DNA of 64,000 bases from an uncultured Bacilli bacterium (GCA_910577075.1 CAJTKV010000001.1:6355-70354); one strand, 5' to 3'; shown: positions 27,386 to 49,274, counted from the first letter of the stretch. Notes: a model not told the origin generated them from the sequence alone. Numbers and translations are program-made.

Positions 27386-27461
27386 TGGTTGCCCCAGTAG
27401 GATTCGAACCTACGGAATAACAGGGTCAGAGCCTGCCGCCTTACCGCTTGGCTATGGGGCA
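27386..27461 (-). tRNA. tRNA-Gln (anticodon CUG), CCA encoded
   Basis: Reverse complement TGCCCCATAGCCAAGCGGTAAGGCGGCAGGCTCTGACCCTGTTATTCCGTAGGTTCGAATCCTACTGGGGCAACCA. 7-bp acceptor TGCCCCA/TGGGGCA, anticodon loop CTCTGAC, T-loop GGTTCGAATCC. Confidence 0.9.
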
Positions 27462-37754: not shown

Positions 37755-38501
37755 TTACCTTTTCTTTCTTCCCAGTAATACTGCCAAAAGCAAACCAATA
37801 AATACTAATAATGCTCCTACACCAATTATAATATATTTATCATAATTTTTCTTTTCTACTATTTGGGAAATTTCTTTTTCCTTTTGCGTACTTGTTGTTG
37901 TACTAACTGATGTACTAATAGAAGCTGTCATGCTAGTTGTTGTGCTATTACTTGTCGTCGTTTCACTACTAGTTGTATTATCCGTCATTACCTTAGATGA
38001 CGTGGACTTCTTAGTTGTCGTCGGTTTCTTTGTCGTCGTCGTTGTTGTTCTTGGAACATCTAAATAGATGAAACCATAATCTGATGTTATTGCTTTTACT
38101 TCATCCACAGATATAGTTTGATTGGTTGCTATACCCGTAGAGTTCATTGCACCACCCTCATCATAGGTAATATTATTTCCATCTACTTTTGTTACAAATG
38201 CCACATGTCCACCAAATCCGTCACCATAATTCCAGATCATAAGAGAATTAACTTTTGGTTCTTTTCCCGTTGCAAATCCCGCCTTCTTTGCCTGCTTATG
38301 CCATGTCCAGACATTATACCAAGTAGGTAATTCAATTCCCGTTCTCTTCTTCGTTTCGCCCCAAGCATACCAAGTACAATTTACTATCTTTCCAAATCCT
38401 AAATCTTCATAATGCGGATAAGGATTGCTCTTCGCAGAAACGGAAGTTACTCCTACTATACTAAACACAAAAATTGCTAAAAACCACTTCATCTTCTTCA
38501 T
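37755..38501 (-). CDS. Secreted CHAP-domain peptidoglycan amidase/endopeptidase with Thr-rich stalk and C-terminal TM anchor
   Basis: Start moved to MKKMKWFLAIFVFSIVGVTSVSA signal peptide. NCTWYAWGE (Cys) and GGHVAFVTKV (His). TTTTTKKPTTTKKSTSS stalk. IIIGVGALLVFIGLLLAVLL plus GRKKR. Confidence 0.85.
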   Translation of the reverse strand: MKKMKWFLAIFVFSIVGVTSVSAKSNPYPHYEDLGFGKIVNCTWYAWGETKKRTGIELPTWYNVWTWHKQAKKAGFATGKEPKVNSLMIWNYGDGFGGHVAFVTKVDGNNITYDEGGAMNSTGIATNQTISVDEVKAITSDYGFIYLDVPRTTTTTTKKPTTTKKSTSSKVMTDNTTSSETTTSNSTTTSMTASISTSVSTTTSTQKEKEISQIVEKKNYDKYIIIGVGALLVFIGLLLAVLLGRKKR

Positions 38502-38579
38502 TTTATCACATCCAATTTTATTATAACATATACAAAATAAATATATAAAAAGAAAATGCGCCAATTAAGCGCATACAAT

Positions 38580-40592
38580 CTATCTATTAGTTAATTTCAA
38601 ATGTTTATCTATTTCCTCTATAGAAGTATTAGAGCATGGGAATAGTTCATCTGCCATATCTCCCATTCGTTTTTCCGCCCCAGTAATAAATTCTTCCATA
38701 GAATAAAAATCTTCAATACCTTCACATAATTTTTTCGTTTTTAATGCTTTTGGATTTTTATCAACCTCAGAAGCAAGCAACGACCATCTTTGATAAGCTT
38801 CTCCATTTTTTTCTCTTCTTTGAGGACCTAAATATTTATCTAACCAAGCTATTTTTAAATCCGTATGTAACTTATTAAACCATAGTAATAAATCATAATT
38901 ACTCTTAGATAATTTATAATTTTCTTGATTTAAATTCTTCATTAGTTCTTTAACTTTTTTATATTGTGCATTATACCAAGTTGTCATATAAGTTCCATCA
39001 AAAAAACAATAGTCCTTACTCTTAGGTAAGACATTTCCATATTCTATAGTCCTCTCATAATATGCGGATCTCTTATCTTCAACATTTGGTAAATCTATTC
39101 CCCTTAAATAATTTTCAAGATAAGCAAGCATCTCAATGACATACATATCATCACTTGAGATTTTATAATCTTTATTCTTTTTATATAGTCTAAGTTCATT
39201 CTTAGCTATTTTTAACATCTCTTTATACCAATCACGCAAATATGTTCCATCTTTATATTTTTCATCTGGATCTTCTAAATATCCCGAATTGGAAATAATT
39301 CTATCACAATAAATATCTGTTTTATCTCTATTACTTAAATAAGCTGTTTGACAAATAGATTCAATATAATTATTTAAATCAGTTATATTACCACCAAATG
39401 AGACATTTTGTAGGCCAACTATACCGTTTCCTGTTTCTCCCTTTTTCTCATAATTATCTCGCAAATGTAAAAAATTCAAAGAACTGATTCTGGTAAGATT
39501 CCCCCCTAAATCCAATATTCTAACCGGCATCTTATTTCCCAAAGAACAACCTCTACCAAACTTTTGTAAAAAGTCACGATAGGCATTTGTTTTATTGGCA
39601 AAAATAATTTGCATTTCGCCATCTGTATGAAAGCCTTCTGTCATCTGTCTTATTGATAATAAAACTTTACTATTGCCATCTCTAAACTCATTATTTTTAA
39701 ATTCATTAATATTCTCTGAATTTTCCTTTTTTGGCAATCTACACGAAGTCTTATATATATCCAATGTTGGAAACTCTCTTCTTAATAATCTTTCCTTAGC
39801 TAACAAATCATTAAAATCTCGACAGTAAAACATTATTTTAGTTTGATGCAAATTCAAATATTTTTTTAATATATGAACTATACCTGCTTCTTTGTTTAAA
39901 TAATCAACTAATTGATCAATCTGCTCTTCACTGATATTTTCTCCTACTCGTTTTTTTAATATATCTATTGCTTCTTCACGAGTATTTCGCGATAGAACAA
40001 AAAATTCGTCATATATAGGTATCGAAAACAAGTCGTTTGCAAACGCTTCATCAAGAGAATAAAAAAATGAAACATTGCCATCGTATAAGACATTTGCCAT
40101 ATTGACTCTCTTTTTTAATTCTTCATCATTATCATCATTTACTATTTCAAAATCCCACTGCAAAATTGGGGTTGCCGATAATCCCAAGTACTTTCTTTCT
40201 CCATCGTCATTAAACATTTTGGAAATTGATTCATATCTCTTCTTTTTGGCAATGGCATGAAATTCATCACAGACAAACAAATCAAATGTAGGAACAATTC
40301 CCTTCTTTATCATTTCATGAAGTTGAGCATAAGTATAAAATTTTAAATCGGCAAAATCCTTATCCAAATCATAACCCATATTGGTTAAATGTTCTTGTAT
40401 TTGTTCTAAATGGAGCTGTCTAGGTGCTGCAAAAACAATAGCTTTATCTGCATAATTCAACATAGCTGAAGTAGCAATTGCTGATTTTCCTATTCCCATT
40501 GTCGCGATAACGCATGAACGTTTCTTAAACTCTAAATCATTTAAAACATTTTCTATTGCTTCTTTAATATGCGGATAATCAAAAATATTCAT
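38580..40592 (-). CDS. SF2 helicase with C-terminal helicase-associated (HA) repeats
   Basis: ATMGIGKS (Walker A), CDEFHA (II), GLSATP (III), QKFGRGCS (VI). The C-terminal third has repeated DGTY..WY and W..L motifs. Confidence 0.85.
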   Translation of the reverse strand: MNIFDYPHIKEAIENVLNDLEFKKRSCVIATMGIGKSAIATSAMLNYADKAIVFAAPRQLHLEQIQEHLTNMGYDLDKDFADLKFYTYAQLHEMIKKGIVPTFDLFVCDEFHAIAKKKRYESISKMFNDDGERKYLGLSATPILQWDFEIVNDDNDEELKKRVNMANVLYDGNVSFFYSLDEAFANDLFSIPIYDEFFVLSRNTREEAIDILKKRVGENISEEQIDQLVDYLNKEAGIVHILKKYLNLHQTKIMFYCRDFNDLLAKERLLRREFPTLDIYKTSCRLPKKENSENINEFKNNEFRDGNSKVLLSIRQMTEGFHTDGEMQIIFANKTNAYRDFLQKFGRGCSLGNKMPVRILDLGGNLTRISSLNFLHLRDNYEKKGETGNGIVGLQNVSFGGNITDLNNYIESICQTAYLSNRDKTDIYCDRIISNSGYLEDPDEKYKDGTYLRDWYKEMLKIAKNELRLYKKNKDYKISSDDMYVIEMLAYLENYLRGIDLPNVEDKRSAYYERTIEYGNVLPKSKDYCFFDGTYMTTWYNAQYKKVKELMKNLNQENYKLSKSNYDLLLWFNKLHTDLKIAWLDKYLGPQRREKNGEAYQRWSLLASEVDKNPKALKTKKLCEGIEDFYSMEEFITGAEKRMGDMADELFPCSNTSIEEIDKHLKLTNR

Positions 40593-40677: not shown

Positions 40678-40707
40678 ACAAATAAAACACCAACTATTAC
40701 ATTGGTG
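40678..40707 (-). terminator. Rho-independent terminator after the NUDIX gene
   Basis: caccaa-ctattaca-ttggtg hairpin followed by TTTTATTTG on the minus strand. Lies in the 129-bp gap before the helicase gene. Confidence 0.5.
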
Positions 40708-40721
40708 CTTTCATTATATCA

Positions 40722-41129
40722 TCATATTAATTTTAAATCCTCTAGCATTAGTTTATGATCATAGGCTAGTTCCATTTCTCTTATTTCCTCTGGCTTAAAC
40801 CATTTAACTTCATCGCATTCGCTTACTGCTGAAGGAGTCCCACTTATAATATCACAAAAATGCGGAAGGCAAATCATTGTTTTAGTTGGATGTCTTCCGA
40901 TTTTATCATAATATCTTCCCGTGAATCGGATATTTCCTATCTCGACACCAATTTCCTCCATAGCTTCTCTTTTTAAAGCATTTTCGATTTCTTCGCCCCA
41001 TTCAACTTTACCAGCTATTAATCCCCATAATTGTTTATAGGCACCTCTTGTACGATGCATTAAAAGTATTTCACCCTTATCATTTCTTATAATTGCATCG
41101 ACACCTATATATGGATGGTCTGTTTGCAT
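40722..41129 (-). CDS. NUDIX hydrolase
   Basis: Nudix box GKVEWGEEIENALKREAMEEIGVE. Starts 10 nt after the upstream gene. Confidence 0.85.
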   Translation of the reverse strand: MQTDHPYIGVDAIIRNDKGEILLMHRTRGAYKQLWGLIAGKVEWGEEIENALKREAMEEIGVEIGNIRFTGRYYDKIGRHPTKTMICLPHFCDIISGTPSAVSECDEVKWFKPEEIREMELAYDHKLMLEDLKLI

Positions 41130-41138
41130 AATATCCCT

Positions 41139-42230
41139 CTATTTCCTTTTTTCTTGTATTTCTCTCGTCAAATCATGCATTATTGTACAATATTCACAAA
41201 GAAGACATCCTTCATTTTTAAATATATCTAAATCATTTTCTAACATTTTTATAGCCGCATATTCACTACATTCATAAAAAGTTTCTGTATCACATTCTTC
41301 TTTGCCTGCAAACTCAGAATTTTCTGAAGGTCTGAACGCCAATATACATGGATGTATTCCATTCATCGTCAATTTATCAATTCCCTTTTTGATTGTATCA
41401 ACTGGTGCAATACCACATATTAATGTACTGCCAACTTTGTTGCCACCTAGTAATTCATTTGCATAAATTCCTCTTTTAATATATTCATCTATACCAATTG
41501 CGCCCTTACCTGGACAAATCTCTCGTCTTAACTTTTCGTCATATATCTCAATATTAAAGCCAAATGAAGTTGCTCCAACATCAATCAATTTCTTTATTTC
41601 TTCTCTAGTTGGCGGAACCATTTCCACCCAAATGGGAATGTCTTTGGATTTTTTTCTGATTTTATCTATTATATTTATAAAATTTGCTGTAGATCGTGGA
41701 AGCGGTAAATATGTACCTCCTCCAAGACAAACATGATATTTCCTTTCATCCTTGGCAAAATCGACTACTTCGGCAATCTCATCAGGAGTAGACTCATTAA
41801 CTCTTTCTCCGCATCCACAAAACTTACACTTCAAATTGCGCTTGTTATAATCACATCCTGTATAAGTCATATGGAGATACTTCTCCCCTTCATCGATAAA
41901 TATCTCCGATGTCAATCGATTTGTTGAAGTCTTTTTCTCATACCACTTTGGCGGATCAATAAAAGCAACATCACAGATAATATTGTCATTAATATCAGAT
42001 AATGAAAGTTTATCTAAACTGCCAACTAACTTGTAACCGACATTTTCCGTGTTTTCATATAGCACATTTGCTAAAACAGATACTTTACTACCTAATTTGA
42101 TCATTATCCCAAAATATCTTCCCTGTTTATGCATTTCACTAGGATTTTGGTGCTCATATATCTGTTCCGCCAAATCATTAGCTAATATTCCATGGCAAAT
42201 TATATCTGCCTTTACTCTTATTAAATCCAT
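41139..42230 (-). CDS. Radical-SAM-like enzyme with non-canonical Cys motif
   Basis: TGCDYNKRNLKCKFCGCG (CX8CX2CXC, not CX3CX2C), LGGGTYLP (GGE-like), GATSFGFNIEIYD, STLICGIAP. C-terminal CLLCEYC. About 110-aa unknown N-terminal domain. Confidence 0.55.
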   Translation of the reverse strand: MDLIRVKADIICHGILANDLAEQIYEHQNPSEMHKQGRYFGIMIKLGSKVSVLANVLYENTENVGYKLVGSLDKLSLSDINDNIICDVAFIDPPKWYEKKTSTNRLTSEIFIDEGEKYLHMTYTGCDYNKRNLKCKFCGCGERVNESTPDEIAEVVDFAKDERKYHVCLGGGTYLPLPRSTANFINIIDKIRKKSKDIPIWVEMVPPTREEIKKLIDVGATSFGFNIEIYDEKLRREICPGKGAIGIDEYIKRGIYANELLGGNKVGSTLICGIAPVDTIKKGIDKLTMNGIHPCILAFRPSENSEFAGKEECDTETFYECSEYAAIKMLENDLDIFKNEGCLLCEYCTIMHDLTREIQEKRK

Positions 42231-42267
42231 TAAAACACCTCTTAAATAGATTATATCATAAATAAAA

Positions 42268-43701
42268 CTATTTACTATTATTATCCAAAAATTTATCTAA
42301 ATACTCTTTCCAATCCTCGGCATTTTCTTCTTCAAACAAGTGATAAAGAATTGCTACAATTATTTCATGTCTATTGCTGGCCTCTTGCATTCCTGCCTTA
42401 GTCATCATCAAATCCTTAAGACACAAAAGTTTATTAAAACAATGTCTAACTACGCTATCATCGCATAATTTGTAATTACTAGCTTCTATCCTATCATCGG
42501 GAAAAGAATTTCTATCAAAAAATGGCTTACCATTACTCTTTTGATAATCAAGACTTCTTAAAATTCCCGTAACTCCTATGGCATCACACATGTAAGCATC
42601 ACTTACAATCATTCCTTCGATGCTCTTAGGTCTAATACCCATCAAAGACTTTTTATAACCAATGCTTTTAATTGAATCTAAAACTATATTCTGACTATCT
42701 TCATCTACTTTAGCTTTAGTCATAATATCCTTGGCATTTTGCAAGTTACTAGCATGTTCTTCGCCAAATATTTTATAATCATCTACTTCATGCAAAAGGG
42801 CAATTAATGAGGGAATAAACACATCGACATTTTCCGATTTGGCAAATTTTAAAGTTAAATCATATACGCGATTAACATGTTCCATACCGTGTCCTGATTT
42901 ATCCTTCTTTAATATTTTTAAAACTTCATCTTTAACTTTTGATATTATTTGATTTCTCTCTTTATAATAGTTAGTAACATCACTACTTCTCCTAAAGACC
43001 TTAACTTTATCACTTAAAAAACCAATAATTTCATCTTCATCTCTACATGCATTATAAAATAATTCGTTTTTATTGGAAAAATGTACTGTTTCTGAAGATT
43101 TTTCTTCCGTAAATAGCGAACCTACTACGACAGTTTCTATATTCTTCTTATCAATTAAGTCTTTATATAAATTCATGTCTTTAATCGTTATATTCTCAAT
43201 AACTGGTTTAATATACAAAACAACAGGAATATTAGAATTAAGCAAATCAAAAGTTTTAAATCTTCTCTCCAAATTCTCTGTTGCTTTCTCATATTTTTCA
43301 TATTCACTTATAGTGCTATTGCTGACAAATATTATCAACTGTCCATAATAACTGATAAGGGGGATTAATTCTTTAACATCATCATAAGATACATATCTTT
43401 TTGTTGATATCTGTACCTGATTACCTTTTGCTAGAAAATATCTTGCTACCTCTAGTGTATCTTTTTTATTTGCCTCATCAAAACACTCAGAAAAACACCC
43501 TAGAGTAATTAAAGTATTCTTATCATACTTAAAATTAAATGTATCAAGCATTTCAAGTACTTCAATACTTGTTTTTCTCTCCATCTTATTCATTCCCATT
43601 TTAGATAAATAACAAAACTTACATTTACTTTTACATCCCAAACATGTATTTATAAATATTCTTTTTTTATCTCTAGCAAAAATATAGCCATTGTCTATCA
43701 T
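42268..43701 (-). CDS. Fusion: SPL-like radical SAM domain + YpgQ/YedJ-type HD phosphohydrolase domain
   Basis: N-terminus CLGCKSKCKFC contains canonical CX3CX2C. C-terminal half SGHGMEHVNRVYDLTLKFA..LIALLHEVDDYK matches the GHxxxHxxRV...ALLHDvxDxK pattern. Confidence 0.8.
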   Translation of the reverse strand: MIDNGYIFARDKKRIFINTCLGCKSKCKFCYLSKMGMNKMERKTSIEVLEMLDTFNFKYDKNTLITLGCFSECFDEANKKDTLEVARYFLAKGNQVQISTKRYVSYDDVKELIPLISYYGQLIIFVSNSTISEYEKYEKATENLERRFKTFDLLNSNIPVVLYIKPVIENITIKDMNLYKDLIDKKNIETVVVGSLFTEEKSSETVHFSNKNELFYNACRDEDEIIGFLSDKVKVFRRSSDVTNYYKERNQIISKVKDEVLKILKKDKSGHGMEHVNRVYDLTLKFAKSENVDVFIPSLIALLHEVDDYKIFGEEHASNLQNAKDIMTKAKVDEDSQNIVLDSIKSIGYKKSLMGIRPKSIEGMIVSDAYMCDAIGVTGILRSLDYQKSNGKPFFDRNSFPDDRIEASNYKLCDDSVVRHCFNKLLCLKDLMMTKAGMQEASNRHEIIVAILYHLFEEENAEDWKEYLDKFLDNNSK

Positions 43702-43796
43702 AAAAATTTTTCCTTCTTATACATATTTATTAAATTATATCATAATAATTTCATCCTGTAAGAATAGTCTCTTCATCAAAAATAAGAAGACAACAA

Positions 43797-43825
43797 TTGA
43801 CATTATGTGATGTTTTTAATATAAT
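43797..43825 (+). promoter_or_regulatory. Consensus sigma-70/SigA promoter for the NAT-like gene
   Basis: TTGACA (43797-43802), exact 17-nt spacer, TATAAT (43820-43825). AAAGGAA RBS before ATG 43855. Confidence 0.65.
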
Positions 43826-43854: not shown

Positions 43855-44868
43855 ATGAAGATTACTACCAATAACTCTGATAAAGGAAATAGTTTTACAA
43901 GTATAGCAAGAGGTAGATATACTTCCATAAAAAAGAAAAAAATCACTTCTTTCATCGACTATAATTCTCTTGATTTAAATCTTATTTCTAAGCTTTTAAA
44001 TCAAGTTATTCAAAATTACACATATAGCACATTTGATCTTATTAAACTAATTAAAGAAAATTTTAATGGCAATATTAAAAAAAGCATTCAATCCGTTGAT
44101 GATTACTCAAAAGTTCGCTTCAATTGTTATTATGCTACTAAACTTTTAAAAGAAAAACTAAAAAATAAAGGGATTGATACCAAATATGTTTCTTACAAGT
44201 CAATTGGTTTTTCTTCTCCATCTGGTGACGAACTTATCAAAGAGGCACATATTTCATTAGTTATACCTACCATCCACAATGAAAGAATCTATTATCTTGT
44301 TTTAGATCCCGGCTATCGCATTCCAGAACCCATGGGTTTTTATAAATCCAGCAAAATTACTAATCTAAAAATTGATCATGATGATATCTCAATTCAAAAA
44401 ACAAGTAGCAACATCTATCCTTATTGCATGAAAATGAAGGGATATAATAGATATTCTATCGATGAAAACAGTTATTCTTGTGAAGAATATTTTAATTGTG
44501 ATTATGAGACGTTGAATCCTGAAGAAATTCTTTTTCCCATCTCCTATACAATTCTAAATGGCTATCGAATAATTAATTATAATGAAGACAAACAAAAATC
44601 GGCTATGATAAAAGTTATGATTTTAGAAGAATATCTCGAATGCTATGACTGCAATCAAAGTATTTCTTTTGCATTTTCTGAGTTAAAAAATATGTCTAAA
44701 GACCAACTATATAACCTACTAACGCCCTTCTGTGATAAATTAAAACAAGACGTTCAAGAATTAGTAGAAATAATTTATTTTATATTGAATAATAATAGCC
44801 AATTTATTAGTGAAATTATGAATAAACCTGTTTTAAAAGAATTTAAAAAGAATATTACTTATCATTAA
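43855..44868 (+). CDS. Hypothetical protein with arylamine-N-acetyltransferase/transglutaminase-like Cys-His-Asp pattern (tentative)
   Basis: VRFNCYYATKLL (Cys), EAHISLVIPT (His), YYLVLDPGYRI (Asp), in the order and spacing of the NAT catalytic triad. Confidence 0.45.
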   Translation: MKITTNNSDKGNSFTSIARGRYTSIKKKKITSFIDYNSLDLNLISKLLNQVIQNYTYSTFDLIKLIKENFNGNIKKSIQSVDDYSKVRFNCYYATKLLKEKLKNKGIDTKYVSYKSIGFSSPSGDELIKEAHISLVIPTIHNERIYYLVLDPGYRIPEPMGFYKSSKITNLKIDHDDISIQKTSSNIYPYCMKMKGYNRYSIDENSYSCEEYFNCDYETLNPEEILFPISYTILNGYRIINYNEDKQKSAMIKVMILEEYLECYDCNQSISFAFSELKNMSKDQLYNLLTPFCDKLKQDVQELVEIIYFILNNNSQFISEIMNKPVLKEFKKNITYH

Positions 44869-45673
44869 ATCGTGTAGAGACAGATATTTCGAAAGGAACC
44901 ATAGATCCGTCCTCCACAACATTGATTTCAACTCCAAAATGCCCCATTCCATCTTTTAATAATTCTTCTTGTTCCATATAAAGAGGAAATACAACATCAT
45001 TTATTAACTTTCTGAATACCTTTTTTTCTATGCCTTTATAACAGTTTGGCATAGTTTTTATTATCTCTTCTTTTTTATCTGGATAGGCATCAAATAAAAA
45101 ATCTCGTCTTATTTTCAAAGTTTCTAAATATTGAATTTGATTTATCTCACCTGTTTTATATTTTTGAATAGACGAATCATCCATAAATGGAACATCATCC
45201 CATGGAATAATCCAGCTCTCATGACTTCCTCTTCCTCTAGACAATAAGCCACAACCAAAACTAGGGCCCACATAATCTATATATAAGAAATGTCCTATCT
45301 TTACATCTAGTCCAAATCCTCCTTCAGTATGAATTCTTTCATTTGTGCCCGGCTTTAAATCTTCCAAGATTATTACAGCATCTGGCACTAGTTTTTTCAC
45401 ATCTCGAATATATTGATTAACTCTATCTCTATGAAACGTTTGTCCCTCTGGCAGTTTTCCTTCAACTCCTCTAGGGGAATCACATCTAACTGTCATAGTG
45501 TTAACGGGAAATTCATTCTTTACCTTTTCCCACTCTTCTTCATTATCAATGACATACATCTTATTTAACGGACTTAAATGCGGTAAATATTTATCAACTA
45601 ACGCTATACCTTTGCATTTTCTGTAAGTATTTATAAGTGCCATATGTTCTTTTTTAGATATATCTAAAATCAT
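44855..45673 (-). CDS. Hypothetical protein (272 aa)
   Basis: Clean ORF. Its 3' end overlaps the convergent NAT-like gene by 14 nt. No confident motif. Confidence 0.6.
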   Translation of the reverse strand: MILDISKKEHMALINTYRKCKGIALVDKYLPHLSPLNKMYVIDNEEEWEKVKNEFPVNTMTVRCDSPRGVEGKLPEGQTFHRDRVNQYIRDVKKLVPDAVIILEDLKPGTNERIHTEGGFGLDVKIGHFLYIDYVGPSFGCGLLSRGRGSHESWIIPWDDVPFMDDSSIQKYKTGEINQIQYLETLKIRRDFLFDAYPDKKEEIIKTMPNCYKGIEKKVFRKLINDVVFPLYMEQEELLKDGMGHFGVEINVVEDGSMVPFEISVSTRFNDK

Positions 45674-45699
45674 TTATACATTCCTCTTTTTTATTATAA

Positions 45700-46254
45700 T
45701 TAATTTAATATATGACTTATAGTTCTATCAATCTGATTAATAATTTCTTCGTCGTCTTTAGTAGGGAGGGTATTTGTATTTAAAGAATATATATAATCCT
45801 TCTGCAAATCGAATTCAGCATTTAACTTTTTAAATGTTTTTACTGATATATCAATTGCATTATCTGGAGACCCATTGCCGCCACCAACAAGTATTAGTAT
45901 TCCCTTCTTTTTCTTCATATTATTAGAAATATTTAAAAAATACTTATTACTCCATATATAATTTAATCTTGTAAATACTGAAAACAATGGTGGAGTTACA
46001 TACGAAATATATATTGGAGATGCAATAATTAAAACGTCATAGTCATCCTTCAATATTACAGCCATATTATCCTTTATAGAACATCCTTCATTTTTCCAAC
46101 AATATCTACAATCTATACACGGTTTAATATCATCTTTATAAGCATTTATTTCATCAAACTCCGTATCACTTGGAAATCTCTCTTTAACTTTATTAATAAC
46201 AAATGCTGTATCTCCATTATTATGGGGAGAACCGTTCAAAATAAGCGCTTTCAC
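45700..46254 (-). CDS. Iron-sulfur flavoprotein (Isf-type flavodoxin/NADPH-FMN reductase family)
   Basis: MKALILNGSPHNNGDT FMN-binding start. CIDCRYCWKNEGC (CX2CX2CX5C) compact cluster motif. Confidence 0.8.
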   Translation of the reverse strand: MKALILNGSPHNNGDTAFVINKVKERFPSDTEFDEINAYKDDIKPCIDCRYCWKNEGCSIKDNMAVILKDDYDVLIIASPIYISYVTPPLFSVFTRLNYIWSNKYFLNISNNMKKKKGILILVGGGNGSPDNAIDISVKTFKKLNAEFDLQKDYIYSLNTNTLPTKDDEEIINQIDRTISHILN

Positions 46255-46363
46255 ATTATCACTTCCATGATTATTATAACATTTCCTACCCTCAAAGTTC
46301 TACCTTATTTTCTTTAACAATTATTTCTGTTTTTATTAAATTGCCTAACTTTTTGAATTTTAA

Positions 46364-46504
46364 AAGGATGTGCACATAATTTTTGTTTACATCCTTTATT
46401 TAGCGCATTAAGCTATACTTTTAAATTATTTGCAAAATGTCAATAAAACTTTTATCTTTCTTATTTACGGCAGCAATTCTTATATTTCTTACCACTTCCA
46501 CAAA
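46364..46504 (-). repeat. Degenerate copy 3 of the secA 3' end (SEC-C coding tail + spacer + terminator hairpin)
   Basis: 46462-46504 tatttacggcagcaattcttatatttcttaccacttccacaaa matches 49232-49274 at 37/43. It encodes only ..LCGSGKKYKNCCRK* behind TAA TAG stops. Hairpin aaggatgt..acatcctt (46364-46396) resembles the secA terminator. Confidence 0.75.
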
Positions 46505-46605
46505 GCCTTTTCTATTAGCGTTTGTGTGAGATCTTGGCAACACTCCACAGCAATCGACAAACCTAGCAGATTGTATATAAAAAATGATTATTCTTATAAA
46601 AACTA

Positions 46606-47565
46606 TCACAATTTTTTACCATCTTTTGAGGTAACTACTTTAGTTGCTATTAACACATCATTTTTCAATTCATCTAATTCAGGATATCTTACTAATTGTT
46701 CTAGAAAATAAACTATATCATATATTCCTAATCTTTCATATAGATTTGGAGTATTAACTAATTCAGGATAATACTTATTAACATATGACATTATATTTGA
46801 ATAATCATTAGCATCTGTATATTTTTCTGTTTCTTCACTAGCAAATTTCCATGGCTTTCTTATCATTCTATAAAGTATATCTAACTCGAAATCTCTTGGT
46901 GCATACATTGATCTTTCAAAATCAATTATTTTAATCTTTCCATTATCCACAAATATATTATCAAAGTGAAAATCATTATGAACTAAGACAAATTCATCAG
47001 AATCAAGATATTCATCAAAATCAGAGTAGGCTTGTTCTAATAATTTTTGTTCTTCGTCATTAAAGATATTTAATTCTTTAGCTTCTTCATATAAAGGATT
47101 AAATTCTTTCTTCATATATTCTGACCAATTATATTTCTCCCCTTTAATGCTGTGCATCTGTTTCATAGCATCACATAGTTGTCTTATTATATCTTCTCTT
47201 TGTTCTTCAGAATAAGTATGCCACACATTAAATAAAGAAACACCATTTACTTTTTCAAGTATTTCATAAAAATATGGAAGATCTTTTTTATCTGTACTTG
47301 AATAATATAACTTAGGTATTAGAGTATTACCTTTATTGGAATTATAAAAAGTGATTTCTTTTTTAAACTCTTCTTCATTATCCAAATCAGTACATACTTT
47401 AACTATATAAGAATCATTTACTTTATATAAAGTATTTGTGAATCCAACATTTATTTTTTCGCACCTTGGATTTGTACCAAATACTGATGTATTGGTTCTA
47501 ACTATTAAATCTATTATTTTGTCCAACTTTATCACTTCCTTCTCAATTATATCATACACCCTCAT
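46606..47565 (-). CDS. APH/choline-kinase-like phosphotransferase
   Basis: LVHNDFHFDNIFV (HxDxxxxN catalytic loop), KIIDFERS (DFE metal-binding). Confidence 0.8.
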   Translation of the reverse strand: MRVYDIIEKEVIKLDKIIDLIVRTNTSVFGTNPRCEKINVGFTNTLYKVNDSYIVKVCTDLDNEEEFKKEITFYNSNKGNTLIPKLYYSSTDKKDLPYFYEILEKVNGVSLFNVWHTYSEEQREDIIRQLCDAMKQMHSIKGEKYNWSEYMKKEFNPLYEEAKELNIFNDEEQKLLEQAYSDFDEYLDSDEFVLVHNDFHFDNIFVDNGKIKIIDFERSMYAPRDFELDILYRMIRKPWKFASEETEKYTDANDYSNIMSYVNKYYPELVNTPNLYERLGIYDIVYFLEQLVRYPELDELKNDVLIATKVVTSKDGKKL

Positions 47566-47622
47566 GTTTATCAGTGAATTAGGGAAAAGACATGCGTATA
47601 ATTACCTAAATATTATAATCAT

Positions 47623-47656
47623 AGAAAAACCCGCAATATCTTTATTTATGTGGGTT
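47623..47656 (-). terminator. Rho-independent terminator after SEC-C copy 2
   Basis: aacccgca-(13 nt)-tgtgggtt hairpin with one mismatch, followed by T5 on the minus strand. Confidence 0.5.
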
Positions 47657-47664
47657 CTCGATCT

Positions 47665-47707
47665 TATTTACCACAACAATTTTTATATTTCTTACCGCTT
47701 CCACAAG
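47665..47707 (-). repeat. Copy 2 of the secA 3' end; forms a 19-codon mini-ORF (47664..47723)
   Basis: tatttaccacaacaatttttatatttcttaccgcttccacaag matches 49232-49274 at 39/43. With ATG 47723 it reads MRVRSSCGSGKKYKNCCGK*. No clear RBS. Confidence 0.75.
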
Positions 47708-47906
47708 AACTTCGTACTCTCATATTATCAATACTTACAATATTTATAATATTATTGATTTTTTTAGGTAATTCTTATATTATCTGCATTATTAGTATCA
47801 TTTTTATTATAAATATTTCTCTACTGTGGACAAATTGAGGACATTGTCCACAATTGTTCACTGATATAGGTATATCATATTTTAACAATTTATAATAATG
47901 TTCCAT

Positions 47907-48932
47907 TTACTTATTTTCTATTTGTTTTGTTTCACTTAACAATCTATCAAAATCAGATACATAATTATTGTCTTGAATAACTTTGTACCTTTCATACTCA
48001 CTTTCGGCTTTTTCCTTTGCCTGTTTGTGTGATATTTTACCTTTTCCCTCTAAAACATCATAATGAAATACTCTTAATGCATTTTCCACTTCATTCTTCC
48101 AGTCATTCATATACATCGCAATATTTCTTTCGGCATTATTTTCGGCAATATCTAAAAATAAGTTGACTAAATTATTCAAATTCTTAATTTCTTTTTCATC
48201 TAAATAGTTTTTAGCAATTATAACATCTGATTTCATTATTTTCCCATCAGGAGATTTCTCCCACGTCTTAAGACCCATATTATCTTTTTTGGAATCTGCT
48301 CTTTCATAAACAATTTCAGCAGCAGTCTGACCAGTTATAGCAAAGTGGAATTTATTTTGAACCGTTTGATAAAATGTTATAGCTATATCACTATCCTTAT
48401 CGTAATCAATTGAACATTCAGCAAATATATCGGTAATTTTTTGATAAAACATTCTTTCACTTGTACGAATTAATTTAATTCTTTCAAGCAATCTTTTAAA
48501 ATACTCTTGATCAGACTTTCTTGCTTTCATAAATCGTTCATCATTTAAAGCAAACCCTTGAACCATGTAATCTTTAATTATCTTATTTGCCCAAGTTCTA
48601 AATTTGATTGCTTTTTTAGAATTAACTCTAAATCCAATAGAAATAATCATATCAAGATTGTAGTAAGGGTAAACCCTTTTTACATTTCGATTTCCTTCCT
48701 TTTGAACTTGTGCAATTTTTGCACAAGTTGAAGTTTCTTCTAGTTCTTCGTCTTTATATATATTATTGATATGTCTAACAATCCCACTTCTATCAATGCT
48801 AAACAGAGTTGATAAGGCTTCTGTATTTAACCAAACATCTTCGTTTTCTAATAATACTTCCACTTTAGTATTACCATCTTCGTCATTATAAAATAAAATG
48901 TTTTTTTCATTTCCAATTAGTTTATCATTCAT
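47907..48932 (-). CDS. RhuM-family virulence/DNA-binding protein
   Basis: Start moved to MNDKLIG (AAGAAGGTG RBS). VEVLLENEDVWLNTEALSTLF..YYNLDMIISIGFRVNSKKAIKFRTWAN is the RhuM signature. Confidence 0.8.
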   Translation of the reverse strand: MNDKLIGNEKNILFYNDEDGNTKVEVLLENEDVWLNTEALSTLFSIDRSGIVRHINNIYKDEELEETSTCAKIAQVQKEGNRNVKRVYPYYNLDMIISIGFRVNSKKAIKFRTWANKIIKDYMVQGFALNDERFMKARKSDQEYFKRLLERIKLIRTSERMFYQKITDIFAECSIDYDKDSDIAITFYQTVQNKFHFAITGQTAAEIVYERADSKKDNMGLKTWEKSPDGKIMKSDVIIAKNYLDEKEIKNLNNLVNLFLDIAENNAERNIAMYMNDWKNEVENALRVFHYDVLEGKGKISHKQAKEKAESEYERYKVIQDNNYVSDFDRLLSETKQIENK

Positions 48933-49103
48933 TATTGCACCTTCTTTAATAATTATTCTTAAAGTAATCAACTAATAATATTATGTTATTATATAATTCT
49001 TCTGTTCTTAGCATTTCCTGTAATTCATATCTATCATATTTTTGATTAAAAAATATTCAATATTTACTGCCATAATTATTTCAACTCGACATTCAACAAA
49101 AAA

Positions 49104-49274
49104 GATGTCAACAAATTTATTTTTGCTGACATCCCTTAATTTCAATGAATTTTGTCCACATTTTATTCAATCGGTTGACAAACAACAAATTTGTTACCTT
49201 TTAAAAATTTAACTTTTCCATTATTTCATACTATTTACCACAGCAGTTTTTATATTTCTTACCACTTCCGCAAG
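49104..49274 (-). repeat. Copy 1 (functional): secA SEC-C coding tail, spacer and secA terminator
   Basis: 49232-49274 encodes ..CGSGKKYKNCCGK*. Terminator hairpin gatgtca-(16 nt)-tgacatc at 49104-49133 is followed by T6 on the minus strand. Confidence 0.8.

Follow-up and report, generated by a model that had tools for sequence, protein, structure and literature searches.

A three-gene operon on the minus strand of a 64,000-nucleotide (nt) stretch from an uncultured Bacilli bacterium (GCA_910577075.1 CAJTKV010000001.1:6355-70354; the whole stretch is called the window, and coordinates are counted from its first letter) was characterized by sequence, predicted structure and gene neighborhood. 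The operon encodes a radical S-adenosylmethionine (SAM) domain fused to an HD domain (gene 1, 42268..43701(-), 477 amino acids (aa)), a variant radical SAM enzyme (gene 2, 41139..42230(-), 363 aa) and a Nudix protein (gene 3, 40722..41129(-), 135 aa). The reading given the most weight, tentatively and at somewhat short of an even chance, is that the enzymes of the operon modify a nucleotide, or a small molecule derived from one, by radical chemistry and then trim it hydrolytically, with a probable antimetabolite role. It builds on observed domain identities, motif conservation, operon structure and gene-neighborhood patterns.

Translation placed all three open reading frames (ORFs) where an earlier note on this DNA had claimed them; the genes are separated by exactly 37 and 9 nt, not the 38 and 10 nt given there. 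The exact sequences of the three proteins are present at NCBI as MCX4364657.1, MCX4364658.1 and MCX4364659.1 (metagenome-assembled genome 'Bacilli bacterium') and recur on 31-43 independent contigs; the genes are therefore real and no accident of assembly. Homologs of the operon proteins span 40-98% identity. A promoter-like site at 43734..43762(-), composed of CTTACA, a 17-nt spacer and a TG-extended TATAAT (10 of 12 consensus matches plus the TG), stops about 33 nt short of the ATG that starts gene 1 and lies where an extended -10 promoter had been proposed (43.70-43.76 kb). The terminator proposed after the Nudix gene was found as an intrinsic-terminator-like hairpin with an 11-bp stem and a T tail, although at 40684..40711(-) and not at 40678-40707; its folding free energy was -16.2 kcal/mol (z = -4.1 vs. 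shuffles), and equivalent hairpins are located 3′ of the Nudix gene in two related loci, L001 and L177. Tight spacing, the promoter-like site and the hairpin bear out the proposal of a discrete transcription unit apart from the downstream helicase gene. No riboswitch was detected near the operon in an Rfam scan, and the operon 5′ untranslated region is too short to hold a ligand-sensing leader.

In the N-terminal radical SAM domain of gene 1 (residues 1-245, 42967..43701(-)), the cluster motif C23x3C27x2C30 (CKSKCKFC) is at least 90% conserved in the family alignment, and GC69xSEC73xD, GNQxQxxTK and YxKP are further motifs of the family. The only Pfam match on gene 1 was Radical_SAM PF04055 (residues 17-179, 32.3 bits vs. 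a cutoff of 29.5). In Foldseek searches with the AlphaFold2 (AF2) model (mean predicted local distance difference test score (pLDDT) 91.8), all matches to this domain were radical SAM enzymes, which together with the CX3CX2C motif and PF04055 places it in the superfamily; the matches were generic, with SuiB, PFL-AE, NosL, spore photoproduct lyase (SPL) and viperin at E values of 4e-6 to 2e-4. The domain had previously been labeled SPL/COG1533-like. When the family profile was compared with the PDB, SPL was the top match at a nonsignificant E value of 0.42, and stand-alone gene-1 relatives scored 18-28 bits against the COG1533-type NCBIfam models NF038135 and NF033668 (Rv2578c/PA0069), whose cutoffs are 360-430; SPL and COG1533 proteins are thus the nearest named relatives by distant resemblance only, and the label does not hold at the family level. 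A weak N-terminal similarity to RlmN (E about 0.7-1) is restricted to the cluster-binding loop. No B12-binding domain was matched in gene 1 by Pfam, the radical SAM domain starting at residue 1 and spanning about 245 aa, and neither gene 1 nor gene 2 matched the PADLOC pVip or NCBIfam viperin models. A phmmer search with residues 1-245 against 1.84 billion cluster representatives recovered 351 relatives at E ≤ 1e-3 and 44 at E ≤ 1e-30. The gene 1 radical SAM domain is thus a rare, patchily distributed orphan family.

The remainder of gene 1 (residues about 246-477, 42268..42966(-)), in which the motifs GHGMEHVNRV and LLHEVDDYK are readable in translation, was assigned as a YpgQ/YedJ-type HD domain from PDB sequence and fold matches: 3djb at 7.2e-30, YpgQ (5dqv) at 3.4e-17 and YedJ (3gw7), with Foldseek TMt values of 0.65-0.89 across these HD structures and 0.76-0.89 when YedJ was left out. 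Motifs, PF04055, PDB matches and Foldseek matches agree on the fusion of a radical SAM domain to a YpgQ-type HD domain that the earlier note had described. YpgQ is a (deoxy)nucleoside triphosphate ((d)NTP) pyrophosphohydrolase whose metal ligands are H29, H58, D59 and D124 (PMC8177086). When aligned to 5dqv, these residues fall on H275, H304, E305 and Y370 of gene 1, so that two of the four canonical ligands of the H...HD...D set are missing (an HE dyad in place of HD, and Tyr370 for the final Asp). HE replaces HD in 17 of the 38 relatives scanned. Tyr370 (codon at 42592-42594) is restricted to this sublineage, in three sequence variants, with Asp in all other scanned homologs (41 motif matches). 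A sequencing error at Y370 was considered and rejected, the exact sequence being present on 31 contigs and the substitution being shared by two other variants. Judged from its ligand residues, the gene 1 HD domain is probably hydrolytically impaired in this lineage, which could leave the phosphate chemistry to the Nudix protein, and the degraded HD site may act mainly as a nucleotide-binding partner. Among other relatives of this HD domain, two from Traorella massiliensis (P0046 and P0055; HD domains 53% identical to that of gene 1) are fused to 5-formyltetrahydrofolate cyclo-ligase (PF01812), and in others the fusion partner is a MarR, PAPS reductase, His_Phos or GNAT domain.

Gene 2 is an atypical radical SAM enzyme, as had been proposed, with an invariant CX8CX2C motif, auxiliary cysteines, a PF04055 match (47.8 bits) and a barrel fold. 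Its translation contains C126x8C135x2C138xC140 and C342x2C345x2C348. In an alignment of 42 family members, C126, C135, C138, C239 and C348 were invariant and C12, C168, C295, C342 and C345 were at least 90% conserved; of the cluster motif CX8CX2CXC previously read from the sequence, CX8CX2C therefore stands and the final CXC does not, C140 not being conserved, while the C-terminal CX2CX2C reported with it is present and conserved. This cysteine pattern fits an oddly spaced radical SAM cluster, in place of CX3CX2C, plus an auxiliary Fe-S site, which is probably the C-terminal CX2CX2C. NCBIfam NF045502 ('variant_rSAM'), a model that names a 'radical SAM protein' and no function, matched residues 5-325 at 154.9 bits, above its cutoff of 125. 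Scores for named families were below their cutoffs: 83.4 bits against TIGR04043 (MSMEG_0568, Nit1C radical SAM; cutoff 303.7), with no nitrilase or other Nit1C-type neighbor among the Pfam-annotated genes around the operon, and 26.6 bits against CofH (cutoff 426). The best PDB match of the gene-2 family profile was ThiH (9.7e-6, over 128 residues only); the low scores and the CX8CX2C in place of CX3CX2C put gene 2 outside the ThiH/CofH/HydG tyrosine-lyase clade. In the AF2 model (pLDDT 93.3), a conserved N-terminal domain of about 110 aa without assignment, made up of two helices and a five-stranded beta unit, precedes the radical SAM barrel, for which Foldseek returned HydE, LipA, BioB, PylB, ThiH and HydG at template modeling (TM) scores of about 0.5.

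Gene 3 was confirmed as a canonical Nudix-box protein by the box G41x5E47x7R55EAMEEIGV in its translation (type GX5EX7REUXEEXGU) and by PF00293 at 81.9 bits; against the MutT equivalog TIGR00586 it scored 53.2 bits, under the cutoff of 97.9. It also matched the PADLOC single-gene candidate PDC-S07 (62.5 bits). The third position of the operon is variable even among close relatives, while genes 1 and 2 remain adjacent at gaps of 16-40 nt: it is occupied by Nudix in the window, L001 and L177, by Nuc_deoxyri_tr2 (nucleoside-2-deoxyribosyltransferase (NDT)-like) in L020, and by RidA plus Nuc_deoxyri_tr2 in L175.

Context for gene 1 was obtained from 80 species-representative loci, to which all counts of gene-1 relatives refer. 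An HD domain is linked to the gene-1-type radical SAM in 28 of the 80, either as a fusion or as a separate gene immediately upstream; the link is recurrent and arose independently, and HD domains of two families take part in it. Architectures of independent origin came from the cluster representatives: two proteins of 814-844 aa (P0205 and P0209) carry HD-CE (PF24391), a phosphoribosyltransferase (PRTase) and the gene-1-type radical SAM domain in a single chain, and P0253 (556 aa) is a PRTase-radical SAM fusion. Two very long proteins (P0200 and P0217, 1747-1770 aa) have an N-terminal gene-1-type radical SAM domain followed by about 1500 residues without assignment. Neighboring genes include an OPRT-like membrane PRTase (8 loci), a thymidylate-kinase-like gene (10 loci), His_Phos (4 loci) and a SAM methyltransferase immediately upstream (14/80). 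Distant gene-1-type radical SAM genes head a compact cassette in which a membrane-anchored OPRT-like PRTase and a thymidylate-kinase-like gene follow; it occurs in Proteobacteria, Paenibacillus, other lineages and at a prophage end (L089 9980-12679, which includes a 140-aa protein; L077, L080-L082, L085-L087, L090, L091 and L093; L174 8001-9589). PADLOC matched only the kinase-like protein of this cassette, always weakly (best PDC-M51B, 39 bits). At the prophage end, from IMG/VR, holin, endolysin and one more gene precede the radical SAM and PRTase genes. Genes for integrase, Mob_Pre, serine recombinase and RhuM are repeatedly found in the vicinity of gene-1 relatives. The recurring HD, PRTase, thymidylate-kinase-like, NDT-like and Nudix partners lend independent contextual support to the nucleotide-directed chemistry proposed in the earlier note; the neighborhoods point consistently to a substrate that is a base, nucleotide or nucleoside and to an accessory lifestyle, and the partner genes found elsewhere suggest a pyrimidine substrate for the gene 1 radical SAM domain.

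The trio is conserved only within one clade and is not a fixed unit. In that clade the block order is orf272, orf337 (divergent), gene 1, gene 2, the variable third gene and helicase, with gene 1 61-94% identical, and the block is always located at one chromosomal site, between secA and LysR-coaBC. Among the 80 loci, gene 2 adjoins the gene-1 relative in a single one (L020), and in no locus is the Nudix gene adjacent. The conserved co-occurrence of the three genes, the absence of which the earlier note had said would count against it, thus fails outside one narrow clade, and the two radical steps in one pathway that it had proposed are therefore only one of several readings. Gene-1 relatives of 53-63% identity lack gene 2; their neighbor is a stand-alone HD gene in L005 and a SAM methyltransferase in L016, L018, L019, L021 and L176, and gene-2 relatives of 67-68% identity have a 2-hydroxyacid dehydrogenase within 4 nt downstream and no gene 1. 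In the wider gene-2 family (35-46% identity) a different, conserved cassette of 4-5 genes recurs, comprising the variant radical SAM gene with or without a fused SAM methyltransferase, 2-Hacid_dh (27 loci), a membrane protein of about 300-345 aa (14 loci), a MoaA-like radical SAM (15 loci) and a TrmFO/GidA-like protein (8 loci); examples are L012, L096, L098, L099, L103, L105, L113-L117 and L119. No gene 1, HD or Nudix gene was found near the gene-2 relatives of 35-68% identity, and the loci of the wider family (35-46%) lack the helicase gene as well. The MoaA-like radical SAM of the cassette was considered as a member of the gene 1 radical SAM family and rejected (hhalign probability 0.4%). 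In L012 the cassette adjoins Lamassu-like genes (LmuB_C, MC3, CTD7). More distant variant radical SAM relatives (28-35% identity) occupy 31 loci among L123-L164, including human gut metagenome contigs; a pentapeptide-repeat protein (about 499 aa) is their consistent partner, and a XerC-like integrase is present in 17 of these 31.

These distributions bear on a first alternative, in which gene 1 is a self-sufficient module and gene 2 with its downstream partner is another, the two being merely co-transcribed and acting on different substrates. Each gene occurs with partners of its own in the relatives just described, the MoaA-like radical SAM of the gene-2 cassette is unrelated to that of gene 1, and across the same genomes gene 1 (61-94% identity) evolves much faster than gene 2 (77-98%) and Nudix (90-96%). 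Set against this, genes 1 and 2 keep their close adjacency in every clade member with no terminator between them, despite turnover of the flanking genes on both sides, and partners of nucleotide type accompany both modules. This alternative is unlikely on balance, and is the one that deserves the most serious weight beside a coupled nucleotide pathway.

For the coupled nucleotide pathway, we infer the substrate class, the coupling of gene 1 to gene 2 and the biological role as follows. The CX3CX2C cluster of gene 1 would generate a 5′-deoxyadenosyl radical that attacks a (deoxy)nucleoside mono-, di- or triphosphate ((d)NMP, (d)NDP or (d)NTP), and the fused HD domain would hold the substrate or product in its phosphorylated form and would also remove phosphates in most relatives, so that gene 1 would work like the OxsB/OxsA pair merged into one chain. 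Gene 2, with its ThiH/CofH/HydE-like barrel, would further modify the same scaffold or supply an amino-acid-derived fragment. Trimming, release or detoxification of the product would fall to the third position, held by the Nudix protein or by an NDT protein resembling an N-glycosidase, alone or with RidA. The operon may serve in making or handling a nucleoside or nucleobase antimetabolite, for conflict with phage or competitors; a defense or antimetabolite role is plausible given the mobile and prophage contexts.

That radical SAM enzymes and HD proteins act in combination on nucleotides is already known as a concept, and the enzyme families described here are unrelated to the known examples. 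In the oxetanocin pathway of Bacillus megaterium, the HD phosphohydrolase OxsA and the radical SAM enzyme OxsB act simultaneously on a phosphorylated nucleoside, dAMP, dADP or dATP (PMC7074753, PMC8177086), which resembles the fused or adjacent arrangement of the 28 loci. OxsB is cobalamin-dependent, however, whereas gene 1 has no N-terminal cobalamin-binding domain by Pfam and so falls outside that type, and OxsA is absent among the PDB sequence matches of the gene 1 HD domain; the likeness is therefore one of architecture and not of homology. Albucidin requires a BioB-like radical SAM enzyme and a second one (AlbA, biotin-synthase-like, and AlbB, OxsB-like; PMC7074753), so that a nucleoside analogue there depends on two radical SAM enzymes, and the nearest folds of gene 2 include BioB, HydE and LipA; no relation at the sequence level was shown, and gene 2 differs by its CX8CX2C motif and extra N-terminal domain. 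Viperin and pVip act on NTPs, are paired with nucleotide kinases and occur in accessory or mobile contexts, as distant gene-1 relatives lie beside a thymidylate-kinase-like gene, but the viperin models gave no match and the Foldseek similarity of gene 1 to viperin was limited to an E value of about 1e-4 and TM scores of 0.3-0.57. The comparisons with viperin and QueE drawn in the earlier note are accordingly analogies, not homology. The gene 1 HD domain resembles YpgQ, YedJ and PenF in fold and sequence, and PenF, a YpgQ-like HD protein from a nucleoside-antibiotic cluster, shows that the type is used in such pathways; gene 1 differs in its fusion to a radical SAM domain, its HE dyad and the Tyr at the D124-equivalent position.

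Genes flanking the operon were examined on both sides. The divergent orf337 (43855..44868(+), 337 aa) had no Pfam, NCBIfam or PADLOC match; it is preceded by a promoter at 43797..43825(+) (TTGACA-17-TATAAT, 12/12 sigma-70 consensus), and copies 64-91% identical adjoin gene 1 in L001, L175 and L177-179. Between strains with 94% identical gene 1, the stretch from secA to the three-gene operon differs (window 43855-49230 vs. L001 5237-9848): in the window it holds RhuM, an APH-type kinase, flavin mononucleotide (FMN) reductase and orf272, and in L001 a tyrosine integrase, RhuM and different small genes. The nearby RhuM matched the PADLOC candidate PDC-S05. Downstream of the operon, a superfamily 2 (SF2) helicase with a ResIII/DEAD match in Pfam and a C-terminal half without assignment is encoded at 38580..40592(-). 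A promoter-like site for the helicase alone lies at 40649-40621(-), a TTGAC..-type site was seen by eye before the helicase in four of four relatives examined, and a terminator precedes it in relatives in which the third gene is Nudix. As a component of the system the helicase was rejected, given its promoter-like site, the terminator after the Nudix gene and the 56%-identity homologs that occur without genes 1 and 2; it is probably a syntenic neighbor and not part of the system. These homologs lie among NT5C, MazG, GDPD and stand-alone HD genes in L180 (204-6069) and L181, and the homolog in L182 (641-3383) has only a weak HD match upstream. The CHAP-domain protein encoded at 37755-38564(-) begins with a signal- or anchor-like N-terminus, continues through a long Thr/Ser-rich linker and has a hydrophobic segment at its C-terminal end; the window and L001 carry it, but L020, L175 and L177 do not. 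A megablast comparison of window 38-48 kb with plasmid and phage collections gave no match, and the only match in an Rfam scan of the whole window at gathering thresholds was a tRNA gene (27389..27461(-)), with no transfer-messenger RNA (tmRNA) despite the nearby smpB.

Several observations weigh against a nucleotide antimetabolite pathway. No homolog of either radical SAM protein has a known substrate, fold searches (Foldseek vs. PDB and BFVD) and PDB profiles returning generic radical SAM enzymes only. Foldseek with predicted structures, which the earlier note had recommended, thus confirmed the HD fold and gave no specific assignment for the radical SAM parts; the statement that no close characterized homolog assigns gene 1 or gene 2 held in PDB, Foldseek, NCBIfam, PADLOC and literature searches, and the literature searches returned no description of the operon or of either radical SAM family. 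PADLOC (PADLOC-DB v2), run on the operon proteins, neighbors, distant relatives and fusions, returned nothing for either radical SAM protein. Viral contigs are nearly devoid of both, gene 2 being absent and gene 1 represented by one relative of 35% identity. Genes 1 and 2 are each widespread without the other, so that their coupling in one pathway is tentative; every gene 1-gene 2 pair is located at the one syntenic site (secA ... LysR-coaBC), and their adjacency could therefore reflect common descent instead of selection. The missing equivalent of YpgQ D124 argues against phosphate removal by gene 1 in this lineage, and metabolic genes (coaBC, a LysR regulator and GNAT) adjoin the helicase on its downstream side.

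Housekeeping damage control in a strict anaerobe, in which an SPL/COG1533-like lyase reverses a radical- or ultraviolet-type lesion of DNA or free nucleotides while, next to a DNA helicase, the HD domain and a MutT-like Nudix protein sanitize the nucleotide pool, is improbable. It is consistent with the weak COG1533-type matches (18-28 bits) and the presence of SPL among the Foldseek matches, with MutT as the best Nudix equivalog match and YpgQ as a (d)NTP pyrophosphohydrolase, and with a locus that is syntenic across related species and whose helicase has homologs among NT5C, MazG and HD genes elsewhere. The SPL/COG1533 scores are nevertheless far below the 360-430-bit cutoffs, a core repair function would not be expected to show the rare, patchy distribution of the gene-1 family, the helicase is transcribed separately and occurs without the operon, and the PRTase and thymidylate-kinase-like partners and the prophage-end and mobile contexts fit synthesis from a base better than repair.

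Somewhat less probable still is that gene 2 is a ThiH/CofH-like amino-acid lyase for a non-nucleotide metabolite or cofactor, the imine being handled by RidA or 2-hydroxyacid dehydrogenase and the nucleotide hydrolases being incidental. ThiH-type enzymes release 2-iminoacetate; CofH (26.6 bits) and ThiH (PDB profile, 9.7e-6) are the closest named sequence relatives of gene 2, which is paired with RidA in L175 and with 2-Hacid_dh in 27 loci. These scores are far under the family cutoffs, the cluster motif and N-terminal domain are unlike those of ThiH and CofH, and gene 1 and the alternation of Nudix with NDT are left unexplained. Modification of a tRNA or rRNA nucleoside by the gene 1 radical SAM domain, often with a SAM methyltransferase, with HD and Nudix processing RNA ends, is very improbable: the upstream methyltransferase in 14 of the 80 loci, the weak N-terminal RlmN similarity and the TrmFO/GidA-like gene of some gene-2 cassettes point that way, but the RlmN similarity is limited to the cluster-binding loop, no domain for binding RNA was found, free bases and nucleotides are the substrates of the PRTase and kinase partners, and the distribution is that of a patchy accessory trait.

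Radical chemistry on a nucleotide, followed by trimming, is thus the reading carried forward. Few radical SAM enzymes act on free nucleotides (viperin, MoaA, QueE and OxsB), and each opened a field, from antiviral chain terminators to cofactors and nucleoside drugs. In the operon described here, two orphan radical SAM families, neither with a characterized member, sit together with nucleotide hydrolases. The fusions of gene-1-type domains to HD, HD-CE and PRTase are unusually informative and open the substrate class to direct in vitro tests. The operon also carries a caution for annotation: modules with other partners elsewhere can be juxtaposed in a single clade and look like a three-gene system. 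As a bolder and doubtful extension, the gene-1-type radical SAM proteins may constitute a new, rare nucleotide-modifying family unrelated to viperin, OxsB, MoaA and QueE, repeatedly recruited with HD, PRTase and kinase partners on mobile elements and prophages for an antiviral or antibacterial nucleoside analogue, and coupled in gut Bacilli to the CX8CX2C radical SAM enzyme, which would yield an undescribed hypermodified nucleoside. If the nucleotide reading is true, the operon would represent new nucleotide-modifying radical chemistry and perhaps a new natural nucleoside analogue from the gut microbiome.

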